A DNA stretch of 49,628 bases, taken from the sequence record PZ721903.1, one strand, 5' to 3'. Positions 32,841 to 47,864 of this stretch are shown here, piece after piece. This stretch comes from a phage. Made by a program: the position numbers and the translations under genes. Below the pieces are notes generated by a model. The model saw only the letters and a list, made by a program, of their open reading frames with translations, did not search any database and had not been told where the DNA came from. Positions within the stretch are counted from its first letter, which is position 1; every line of letters begins with the position of its first letter.

Positions 32841-33017
32841 ATGAAGCGAGTTAAGTGCATCCGAAATGACTCCAAAACACTTCCATTCCGCGTAAATCAG
32901 ATCTATAGTGTTGGTTATGATTTCGGTGGGGGATTATTTGAGATTTACGACGGGCGAGGTTCAGCAATTCAGGCTCCTCTGAACGGTAGCTATCTGGAAT
33001 TTATTGCGATAGATTAA
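32841..33017 (+). CDS. small hypothetical protein (58 aa)
   Basis: Below the 60-aa track cutoff; preceded by a complete cassette and RBS aagagga; followed by terminator 33039-33071. Confidence 0.4.
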   Translation: MKRVKCIRNDSKTLPFRVNQIYSVGYDFGGGLFEIYDGRGSAIQAPLNGSYLEFIAID

Positions 33018-33135: not shown

Positions 33136-33351
33136 ATGAAAGAATTTTTAACAGCAGCTACGTCAAGCACGGGCGGTGCTTCATTAGTCGGGGCCGCTAC
33201 CGGGCAACTTTATATTGCTGGCGCTACATTCATTTGCTTTCTGCTTTTTGGTGCCTGGGGTGCATACTGGAAGTATCGTGATAGTAAGGCAATTCAGGAA
33301 GCGTTAAACGATGGCGATCTAAATAAGGCGCTTAAGATCAGGGGGAGATAA
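33136..33351 (+). CDS. holin (possible pinholin)
   Basis: 71 aa with hydrophobic core [21 protein letters not shown] and charged C-terminus; directly upstream of the SAR endolysin with ATGA overlap; start ATG 33136 rather than the TTG at 33073. Confidence 0.6.
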
Positions 33352-33839
33352 TGAGCTTAAAAAATAACGTTATAGGCGCATCGATCGGGGCTGCTTTGAC
33401 GTTGACACCCACCCTACTGGAACGAATCGAAGGTATAGAATACGAGGTGTATTACGATATAGCCGGAGTCCCTACCGTATGCAGCGGAATAACCGGGCCG
33501 GACGTCATACCTGGTAAGAAATACACTAAGCGAGAATGCGATGCATTGCTGATAAAACATATCGGCGTCGCTCAGCGATACGTTGACAAAAAGGTGAATG
33601 TTGATATTCCGGTAACGATGCGCGCGTCACTGTACAGCTTCACTTTCAACGTTGGAACTGGCGCGTTCGGATCTTCTACAATGCTTAAGCTAATAAATCA
33701 GAGTAAGCACAAGGAAGCGTGCAATCAGTTATGGCGATGGGTATACTACTACAACCCAAAAACCAAAAAGCGAGAAGTGTCTAGAGGACTCAAGAACCGA
33801 CGCGCTGAAGAATACGCGTATTGCGTTAAGGAATTATGA
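33351..33839 (+). CDS. SAR endolysin (T4 lysozyme-like, GH24)
   Basis: N-terminal signal-anchor-release-like segment [17 protein letters not shown] followed by the E...D...T catalytic region ([26 protein letters not shown]). Confidence 0.8.
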
Positions 33840-34240
33840 TGAAACTGAAGAAAACGTGCATTGCGATTACAGTGGCTGTTGGTGTTATTTCTCTATCCGG
33901 TTGCTCTACGGCATCTGCCCTGAGCGGTTTAATCGGATCTAAACCGGAAGTTACAGCACAAATCGGAGAGGAGAACACAAAGCAATTAGCAGGAGTAACC
34001 GCAAAATCCGAAGATAAGCGAGATGTTAAAGTTGAGAAGTCCAATGTAGGAAAGATTGACTCTTCCTTGAAGAAGTCAATTGAAGTGTCAACCATTAAGG
34101 CTAACACGGTTAACGCTGAAAGCATCACAATAACAAAGCCAGAAAACTGGTACGATGCAATTGTAGGATGGACTCTCGTTTTCATTGGCCTATTGCTGGT
34201 TTATTTTTCAATTCGTAAGGACGAAAAAAAAGGAGGCTAA
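33836..34240 (+). CDS. unimolecular spanin (lipoprotein with C-terminal TMD)
   Basis: Lipobox ISLSGCS at the N-terminus and C-terminal [25 protein letters not shown], the architecture of T1 gp11-type u-spanins. Confidence 0.7.
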
Positions 34241-34256
34241 GCCTCCTTTTCTTTTA
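34223..34256. terminator. bidirectional terminator between spanin (+) and leftward early operon (-)
   Basis: aaaaaaaaggaggctaagcctccttttctttt: stem aggaggc/gcctcct with an A-run and a T-run; the spanin stop TAA sits in the loop. Confidence 0.65.
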
Positions 34257-34472
34257 TGCATCTGCCCACATGTAACTCTCGTTAGTGAGTTTTGCATATT
34301 CTCGAACTTCAAACTCGCAAGTGTCACCGTACATCTCAGCAACCTTCTTCTCGTTAGCTACCGCTGATTCTTCGGTCCACCCATCAGCTTTACTGTAAAG
34401 AGTAGGAATCTCACTGCTAGTACCGTTTGAGTGATTGTAAACGCGAACTACTAAAAATTTGTTAGCCGTGAT
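34254..34472 (-). CDS. hypothetical protein lacking a canonical start codon
   Basis: Open frame of about 72 codons downstream of a complete leftward cassette and RBS gaagga; the codon at start position is ATC (34472-34470); no ATG/GTG/TTG in frame until 20 codons before the stop. Confidence 0.3.
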   Translation of the reverse strand: MTANKFLVVRVYNHSNGTSSEIPTLYSKADGWTEESAVANEKKVAEMYGDTCEFEVREYAKLTNESYMWADA

Positions 34473-34531
34473 GTTTTCCTTCAGGTCGTTTCGTTTCGAT
34501 GAAACAAATATACCCGATGCGAGATCGGGTG

Positions 34532-34550
34532 TTTTAACAAAAAGTGCTAT
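34532..34550 (-). promoter_or_regulatory. palindromic box copy, leftward cassette
   Basis: ttttaacaaaaagtgctat on +; on the - strand followed by a hairpin, tatatt and CATCGAAACGAAACGA. Confidence 0.6.
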
Positions 34551-34658
34551 TTGTACCTTTTTACGTGAAGGAGTAACCCCCCCTCCTTGTCGCAAAGATT
34601 ATGCTCGCTTTCGTTACTGGCCCTCATTGAAGTGAGTAACAGACTCAACAACCCTTGC

Positions 34659-41699: not shown

Positions 41700-42170
41700 A
41701 TGGCGACAATTACCGTATTTCTTGCTAAAGATGAGCTTGATGGCGAAATGTCATTCTTCGCGTTTGAGCATAAAACCGGCTCGCACTGGCACACTTACAG
41801 CCATTACACGGTTATCTCAATCGAAGCGTACGACGGCGAACTGCTCACTGATAAACTGAGTAATTTCATTGAAGCCGTTAAAGCTAGCGGCGGCTGCGAG
41901 TGGAAGGAAGATCACGAAGTTATGCGAATGTTTGAGATGGTCAATCCGGTTCGCCTTGAGTCGTTCGAGCTTGATGCTAATGTGACTATCAAGGTGAGAA
42001 AGTCGGGTGAGTTATTGCCAGGGATGCGTGTACTGACTGGTTACTCTGGCCGTAAGGTGTGGCGCACTGTATCCAAGATTCGCCAGCGCTCGGCAACATG
42101 CTATAGCGTATTCTTTGATGATGGTTGGAATATGATGTCCGGTAGTGAGGTAAAGTATCTCACCAAATAG
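41700..42170 (+). CDS. hypothetical protein
   Basis: 156 aa; stop TAG lies in box copy 42167. Confidence 0.5.
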   Translation: MATITVFLAKDELDGEMSFFAFEHKTGSHWHTYSHYTVISIEAYDGELLTDKLSNFIEAVKASGGCEWKEDHEVMRMFEMVNPVRLESFELDANVTIKVRKSGELLPGMRVLTGYSGRKVWRTVSKIRQRSATCYSVFFDDGWNMMSGSEVKYLTK

Positions 42171-42186
42171 CACGAATTGTTAAAAC
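42167..42186 (+). promoter_or_regulatory. palindromic box + hairpin-embedded TATAGT
   Basis: atagcacgaattgttaaaac; 22 nt; TGcTATAGT inside ggggta...tacccc; CATCGAAACGA; CCAATCAGAGGAAT. Confidence 0.65.
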
Positions 42187-42248
42187 CTGATCGGGGTATC
42201 TTGCTATAGTTACCCCATCGAAACGAGATACCAATCAGAGGAATAACC

Positions 42249-47219: not shown

Positions 47220-47792
47220 ATGAAAACAGCTATCATTTTAAACGGCGCACCTGGTGCGGGAAAGGACACTATCGGATGCATCCTTGCTGACACTTACGAT
47301 CACGTAGCCTTGCGCAGCTTCAAAGCGCCAATGTTTGAGATTGCCAGGGCAATCCTGGGTGAAGCTAACTACGAGTATTTCATGTTCTTGTATGAGGACC
47401 GTCGATATAAAGAAGAGCCAGCATCAATCCTGAACGGTAAAAGCCCGCGCCAGTTTATGATCTGGATTAGCGAGGAAGTCATCAAGCCGCAGTTCGGAAA
47501 TCGCTTCTTCGGTATGCGAGCGGAAAGCAAGGTGAAAGAGTCGCACTCCCTTTCGGTATTTACTGATGGTGGATTCAAAGACGAAATCTTGCAGATGATT
47601 GAAGGTGATATCCAGGTCAAGCTATGTCGAATACATCGCAACGGTTGCAGCTTTGATAACGACAGCCGCGACTATATCTATCTTGACGACATGATCGGGG
47701 TTAACGGTTATCAGGAATGTGACTTCTTTTCTGTCGAAGGTCATCCAGAAATTACCGCTCAGCACATAGCCGCCACGTTCATCAATAAATAG
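47220..47792 (+). CDS. P-loop kinase, dNMP-kinase-like
   Basis: Walker A GAPGAGKDT and LNGKSP segment resembling T4 gp1-type deoxynucleotide monophosphate kinases. Confidence 0.55.
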   Translation: MKTAIILNGAPGAGKDTIGCILADTYDHVALRSFKAPMFEIARAILGEANYEYFMFLYEDRRYKEEPASILNGKSPRQFMIWISEEVIKPQFGNRFFGMRAESKVKESHSLSVFTDGGFKDEILQMIEGDIQVKLCRIHRNGCSFDNDSRDYIYLDDMIGVNGYQECDFFSVEGHPEITAQHIAATFINK

Positions 47793-47808
47793 CACGAATT
47801 GCTAAAAC
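47789..47808 (+). promoter_or_regulatory. palindromic box + TGaTATAGT
   Basis: atagcacgaattgctaaaac; -10 at 47827-47832 puts the palindrome centre (47797) near -42; CATCGACAACGA at the predicted transcript start. Confidence 0.65.
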
Positions 47809-47864
47809 GTCGATGGGGTGATTTGATATAGTTACCTCATCGACAACGAAGAGAGAAAATCTAA

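Follow-up and report, generated by a model that had tools for sequence, protein, structure and literature searches.

An ATG to ACG start-codon change in a small accessory gene of a T1-like coliphage lineage, probably a recent gene loss

In the DNA analysed here (record PZ721903.1, 49,628 nucleotides, called the window in its full length) a small minus-strand gene equipped with its own regulatory cassette carries ACG where most of its orthologues carry ATG, the difference being one T-to-C transition at position 34468. For the lineage to which the window belongs, the change of start codon itself is evident from the alignments. Its most probable consequence, to which we assign a probability of about 0.8, is that a recent ATG to ACG start loss left an accessory gene silenced or strongly hypomorphic, i.e. 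a fresh pseudogene. Such an event is an ordinary gene loss, of a known kind although previously unremarked for this lineage, and involves no new initiation mechanism.

The window derives from a T1-like coliphage (Tunavirus, Drexlerviridae); around the locus, identity is 99.9% to Escherichia phage phiD2-2 and 90-97% to many Tunavirus phages. The gene lies next to the lysis genes, in the following setting:

33351-33839, plus strand: endolysin; a holin gene is found nearby on the same strand
33836-34240, plus strand: u-spanin, convergent with the 71-codon ORF
34224-34250, both strands: bidirectional rho-independent terminator AAAAGGAGGCTTAGCCTCCTTTTTTTT, common to the 71-codon ORF and u-spanin
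34469-34254, minus strand: 71-codon ORF and stop (TAA at 34256-34254), lacking a canonical start here; the product is a small acidic protein of family phrog_27210
34473-34595, minus strand: N-terminal extension of a 113-aa TTG-start gene model, noncoding and coincident with the regulatory cassette
35066-34659, minus strand: YdbL/HTH-like gene of 135 aa, just upstream of the cassette of the 71-codon ORF
same neighbourhood, minus strand: DUF3987 helicase-like gene

The order YdbL/HTH-like gene, cassette, phrog_27210 gene, u-spanin is kept in all genomes examined, and the terminator at u-spanin also figures in the annotations of T1 and, for both strands, of phage Chapo. The cassette upstream of the ORF had been described in the initial annotation, and all of its elements (box, hairpin, TATATT, leader and GAAGGA, on the minus strand) are indeed present:

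34550-34531, minus strand: box ATAGCACTTTTTGTTAAAAC, a copy of a 21-nt direct repeat (caaATAGCACTTTTTGTTAAAAC), matching the consensus aaATAGCACnnnTTGnTAAAA of phage TLS
34530-34512, minus strand: hairpin ACCCGATCTCGCATCGGGT (ACCCGAT-CTCGC-ATCGGGT, 7-bp stem), between box and hexamer
34512-34507, minus strand: -10-like hexamer TATATT, 38 nt from the start of the box
34501-34486, minus strand: conserved leader motif CATCGAAACGAAACGA
34482-34477, minus strand: Shine-Dalgarno (SD) sequence GAAGGA, 7 nt before the ACG and 4 nt before the ATC
34472-34470, minus strand: ATC, an in-frame near-cognate at the end of the SD-to-start spacer, variable in relatives
34469-34467, minus strand: ACG at the ancestral start position, ATG in 16 of 20 genomes

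Cassette and ORF were aligned for 20 distinct genomes from four genera (Tunavirus, Hanrivervirus, Warwickvirus and Changchunvirus). At the position of the window's ACG, 7 nt after the SD sequence, an ATG is found in 16 of them (LeonhardEuler, ISF002, ADB-2, IME18, SH6, BIFF, Sfin-3, CLB_P3, Chapo, one metagenome contig, damhaus, grams, tonn, SECphi27, BEK12A and W011D), while the other four have ACG (the window, phiD2-2 and FCWL1) or AAG (vB_SsoS_008). Scanning viral and metagenome DNA with sequence patterns added only one further genome. The relatives read ...GAAGGAAA(A/G)CAT(C/T)ATGGCTAAC..., with the same SD sequence and the same 7-nt distance between it and the ATG. When the leader of CLB_P3 is compared with that of the window, a single base differs, and it falls in the start codon (CATCATGGCT against CATCACGGCT). 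Since ATG is present in all the outgroup genera, it represents the ancestral state. The same codon begins the curated 216-nt CDS of LeonhardEuler, and homologous proteins start with M[AST][NDS]K.

The initial annotation had placed the start codon one triplet upstream, at the ATC, and had proposed a comparison with homologues, expecting an ATG there. The comparison did reveal the ATG, in the 16 genomes listed above, but it aligns with the next codon, the ACG. ATC was therefore rejected as the ancestral start: the ATG of the relatives lies one codon downstream, and the triplet preceding it varies (ATC, ATT or ACC, and GGC in vB_SsoS_008), as befits the end of a spacer. The proposal of a start-codon mutation creating a pseudogene is thus supported by the relatives, with the ACG, and not the ATC, as the mutated codon. 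Relative to its intact orthologues the ORF carries a disabling start-codon change, as expected of a pseudogene arising by start-codon loss.

From the ATC to the stop at 34254 there are 72 sense codons, as originally counted. The related statement that no canonical start occurs in frame before codon 53 holds for the 5' end, but the earliest one is an ATG at codon 47, counted from the ATC. Between the hexamer and the ORF no canonical start was found in any frame, except for an out-of-frame TTG overlapping TATATT. Prediction of the minimum free energy mRNA structure gave the same result for the ACG and ATG versions. A phage tRNA able to initiate at ACG was also looked for, and no tRNA genes were found in the window.

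Where the ATG is present, the ORF behaves as a gene. With the initial methionine restored, its product matches the phrog_27210 profile with E = 1.5e-51, residues 1-71 aligning to positions 1-71 of 71, and it is 93-94% identical to two proteins of the family, whose members include the 71-aa hypothetical proteins bas13_0043 of LeonhardEuler (QXV82480.1), BPP3_15 of CLB_P3, damhaus_37 and gp09 of SECphi27. By profile, position and cassette the ORF belongs with these proteins, from which it departs in the canonical start: sequence, position, cassette, SD sequence and terminator are the same, and ACG replaces ATG. Among the ATG-bearing 71-codon orthologues the median pairwise dN/dS is 0.07, and variable sites are distributed 11/10/38 over the three codon positions, with the third dominant. 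Judged from these substitution patterns, the ORF is a real gene, on which purifying selection acts in the ATG-bearing phages. The family is a small one: a set of 1.8 billion representatives contained only 4 clusters of it at 50% identity, and it is confined to T1-like and related phages. A confident AlphaFold2 model (pLDDT 83) has a small beta-beta-alpha-beta fold with a disordered acidic tail. A Pfam search of the 71-aa protein returned no domain, Foldseek against the PDB gave no significant match (best E 0.55), and a structure search of BFVD retrieved family members only. A resemblance to the phage uracil-DNA glycosylase (UDG) inhibitor p56 was considered and discarded, the TM scores of 0.37-0.44 being not significant.

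The distribution of the phrog_27210 gene is patchy. In phage T1 the HTH gene is directly followed by the terminator and u-spanin, and both the cassette and the 71-codon gene are absent; because T1 does without it, the gene is regarded as accessory and dispensable.

The three genomes with ACG are part of a larger set of nearly identical sequences. When the 113-aa product of the TTG-start ORF, which spans the ACG, was searched for as an exact match, 16 contigs were retrieved, corresponding to two NCBI genomes (phiD2-2 and FCWL1) and to Logan assemblies of at least 8 independent runs. The 10 loci that were fetched all carry the ACG, reading ATCACGGCT, and encode an identical ORF protein; over up to 3.3 kb, their identity to the window is 99.86-99.97%. 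On this degree of identity the ACG carriers are one tight, young clonal lineage. A lone base differing from all close relatives at a critical site is just what a sequencing or assembly error would look like, with ATG as the true codon, and such an error had been among the explanations first put forward. The same base is found, however, in two independently deposited genomes and in the assemblies of at least 8 independent runs, and the site lies outside any homopolymer. For the former reason an error is considered refuted, and its probability negligible.

No secondary decay of the ORF, by stop or frameshift, was seen in the members of the lineage, which differ from each other by only about 0.1%. 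Since such a divergence predicts about 0.2 changes in 216 nt, the intactness of the ORF is uninformative about selection. That the ORF is otherwise undamaged is put down to the very recent origin of the lineage, rather than to demonstrable continued selection; taken by itself, an undecayed ORF speaks against silencing to the extent that it is equally compatible with continued use.

The runs containing near-identical copies are SRR34094698, SRR17478310, SRR23619850, SRR23619853, SRR35777054, SRR34831172, DRR869229 and DRR869217. T1-like phages are known laboratory contaminants, and the runs carrying the lineage may stem from contaminated cultures. At position 34578, in the noncoding stretch upstream of the box, the window has a G and hence seven consecutive G on the minus strand (GGAGGGGGGGTT), whereas an A interrupts them (GGGGGAG) in all 10 other lineage members; the difference is either a SNP specific to the window or a homopolymer error. 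Version 1 of the FCWL1 record (PP558327.1) shows a minus-strand CDS, at 602-943, flipped to its reverse complement without its flanks, and places all five CDS of the examined stretch on the plus strand. The arrangement is normal in version 2, and the inversion looks like an artefact of record construction.

The consequences for expression may be outlined as follows. The T-to-C transition hit the start codon of a 71-codon accessory gene having its own cassette. With cassette and SD sequence intact, transcription into mRNA probably continues, while protein output is expected to drop, because only the near-cognates AUC (at 4 nt) and ACG (at 7 nt) follow the SD sequence. Judged from published E. 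coli reporters, the output would amount to at most a few percent of that of the ATG allele, about 100-fold down, and the phage would tolerate the loss because the gene is dispensable, T1 being without cassette and gene. In those reporters AUC, AUU, AUA and CUG initiate at 0.1-3% of AUG (bioRxiv 10.1101/063800). The remaining codons initiate at about 0.1-1% of AUG in a first, high-expression screen, and at about 0.01-0.1% in a sensitive assay of twelve selected codons, ACG not among them (bioRxiv 10.1101/063800). The 64-codon set of Hecht et al. consists of engineered reporters behind a normal SD sequence (bioRxiv 10.1101/063800), whereas the present case is a natural allele, to which the expression values are extrapolated. 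With a good SD sequence, an optimal 7-nt spacing and two adjacent near-cognates, residual translation could exceed the reporter averages.

The same features would favor a functional non-canonical initiation, in which a meaningful amount of protein is made from the ACG (71 aa) or from the upstream ATC (72 aa) and a tuned-down allele is kept. The SD sequence is intact and optimally spaced, the two near-cognates stand in tandem, and no sampled member of the lineage has a damaged ORF. Both ACG and AUC initiate detectably in E. coli, with methionine at the N-terminus, as confirmed by mass spectrometry for an ACG-started GFP (bioRxiv 10.1101/063800). Against this, relatives do not share the non-AUG codon, 16 of 20 genomes having ATG, an intact ORF carries no information in so young a lineage, and the reported efficiencies are 0.1-3% or lower (bioRxiv 10.1101/063800). 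This reading is consequently held to be unlikely.

Genes with programmed non-AUG starts are known: E. coli infC starts at AUU, and in genes of this kind such a codon is conserved and serves regulation. The locus resembles infC in having a near-cognate codon at the correct distance from the SD sequence, and differs from it in that the ACG occurs in a single, very young lineage. Since the orthologues do not share the unusual codon, a programmed non-AUG gene of the infC type is not supported; of the non-canonical initiation suggested in the initial annotation, what may persist is a leaky residue.

A start loss favored by selection was also considered, for instance if the small protein were toxic or sensed by a host defence. 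The lineage, with its null or hypomorphic allele, was recovered from many datasets; this sampling indicates that the allele is at least not strongly deleterious, and it could even be advantageous. Moreover the gene is patchy and absent from T1, and vB_SsoS_008 is also devoid of the ATG. Hitch-hiking in a clonal expansion, however, explains the frequency of the allele equally well. The protein, lacking a Pfam domain or a significant fold match, carries no functional information, and the literature on SECphi27 escape mutants (RAZR) reports a different protein, Gp77 (Erf-like), with no link to the present one. The AAG of vB_SsoS_008 falls within clustered patches that also break the upstream gene. 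For these reasons adaptive silencing is judged improbable. Nearly as doubtful is the broader proposal that the ACG allele is either a selected hypomorph, with a few-percent dose from the tandem AUC-ACG, or a selected off-switch for a toxic or defence-sensed protein; if true, it would help to explain why so many independent datasets contain the lineage. A residual or adaptive role of the ACG allele is, all in all, given a low probability, none of the observations requiring it, and recent silencing or strong reduction of the gene is preferred. The ACG of the window and the ATG of CLB_P3 constitute a natural allele pair, the leader being otherwise the same over the compared stretch, and may be used both to gauge how well near-cognate codons initiate in a phage setting and to probe the role of the conserved small protein.

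In vB_SsoS_008 (MK335533.1) the sequence CATCATG is changed to CGGCAAG, with AAG at the start position. The dN/dS to its nearest relatives is raised (0.36-0.48), and the record contains clustered patches of substitutions: many replacements of 3-6 nt are found within 40-960, among them a change of TTTTTG to TTACCG in the box, and stops are present within the upstream 135-aa gene. Because these patches may reflect either record quality or regional decay, the AAG is weak evidence of a second loss.

The loss of the start codon has led to the mis-annotation of the lineage records. In the GenBank records of phiD2-2 and FCWL1, and also in that of vB_SsoS_008, the start is set at the TTG at 34595, which yields a 113-aa product with its first 42 residues read from the box, hairpin, hexamer, leader and SD sequence. 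The frame is in fact open for 43 codons upstream of the ACG, and gene callers choose the TTG. A genuine 113-aa gene is nevertheless very improbable, considering that the elements of the extension recur at about 25 places in the genome, that no SD sequence precedes the TTG, and that the family profile is only 71 positions long. In addition, the upstream frame is broken in relatives, by indels in ADB-2 (1 nt) and BIFF (5 nt), by an in-frame TGA, in ADB-2 and Sfin-3, 7 codons ahead of the ATG, and by stops or the lack of a start in six further genomes. The earlier remark that an upstream TTG start would translate the promoter itself is thereby borne out. The 113-aa 'hypothetical protein' of phiD2-2 and FCWL1 begins with 42 residues which are a translated cassette, and is correctly described as a phrog_27210 gene of 71 codons whose start codon has mutated.

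The cassette is extremely conserved between genera. In the orthologous cassettes of 18 genomes the box is invariant or nearly so and TATATT is invariant, while the hairpin stem CCCGAT/ATCGGG becomes CCCGAC/GTCGGG in tonn and SECphi27 (Warwickvirus), a compensatory change. The window contains about 25 copies of the 21-nt repeat. In about 18 other cassettes the hexamer is located 38 nt from the start of the box, followed by an SD sequence and by ATG or GTG at 69-84 nt. In the cassette at 34550, oriented as the ORF, the ACG is found at an offset of 81 nt, and this is the only complete box/-10-like/SD cassette of the window without a canonical start. The motif CATCGA(A/C)AACGA recurs 3' of the hexamer in many cassettes. 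The cassette is regarded as a putative promoter.

A consensus scan did not call a canonical sigma-70 -35/-10 pair at TATATT, and the box was dismissed as a sigma-70 -35 element on account of this result and of the 22-nt spacer to the hexamer, which is too long. The sigma-54 promoter consensus is TGGCAC-N5-TTGC; the box does not fit it, the gap between CAC and TTG being only 3 nt. An Rfam scan of the region gave nothing at the gathering score, no known RNA family overlapping it, and no transcript mapping for the cassette was found in the literature. The 21-nt repeat aaATAGCACnnnTTGnTAAAA is known from TLS, T1, Rtp and Rogue1; in TLS it precedes start codons by about 76 nt, and what it does is treated there as an open question (PMC11447400). 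The box of the window shows no difference from this TLS-type repeat, and its orientation with respect to transcription also matches.

The core of the repeat is a near-palindrome, TAGCA-N5-TGCTA, perfect in ATAGCACGAATTGCTAAA; repeat sites include 47789-47850 (+), 42167-42230 (+), 44474 (+), 38847 (-) and 34550 (-). If the TATAGT-like hexamer found at a fixed offset is a -10 element, the center of the palindrome would fall about 41-42 bp upstream of the expected +1. The gap between TTGNTA and the hexamer, 22 nt, is over-long for a sigma-70 -35/-10 pair. In this geometry the repeat looks more like the site of a dimeric factor at a class-II activator position than like a -35 or UP element. The T1 record assigns an HTH domain to the product of its orthologue of the 135-aa gene (RipR-like by HHpred), and the 135-aa HTH-like protein is a possible candidate for the factor binding the palindromic box.

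Hairpin stems differ in sequence among paralogous cassettes, yet stay complementary. Two classes of cassettes can be distinguished, those in which the stem encloses the TATAGT-like hexamer, located in the loop, and those in which the stem ends just 5' of it (cassettes compared: 27248, 36712, 37212, 37731, 38847, 42167, 43187, 44474, 46122 and 47789 versus 30780, 32768, 34550 and 41427). Since such stems could not form in RNA if transcription starts downstream of the hexamer, they suggest either a structure at the DNA level or a start located further upstream.

Another small ORF of the region, coding for 58 aa (DUF7244; 32841-33017, plus strand), is located behind its own cassette just upstream of the holin gene. 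A standalone SH3-domain gene has recently been described as part of the Drexlerviridae lysis module (PMC13164509), and the 58-aa ORF probably corresponds to it. The same paper, dealing with phage KanT1, was considered as a source for the 71-codon gene and set aside, a term search of it giving no phiD2-2, FCWL1 or start codons; the closest relative of KanT1 is stated there to be phi2013, with 93% identity (PMC13164509).
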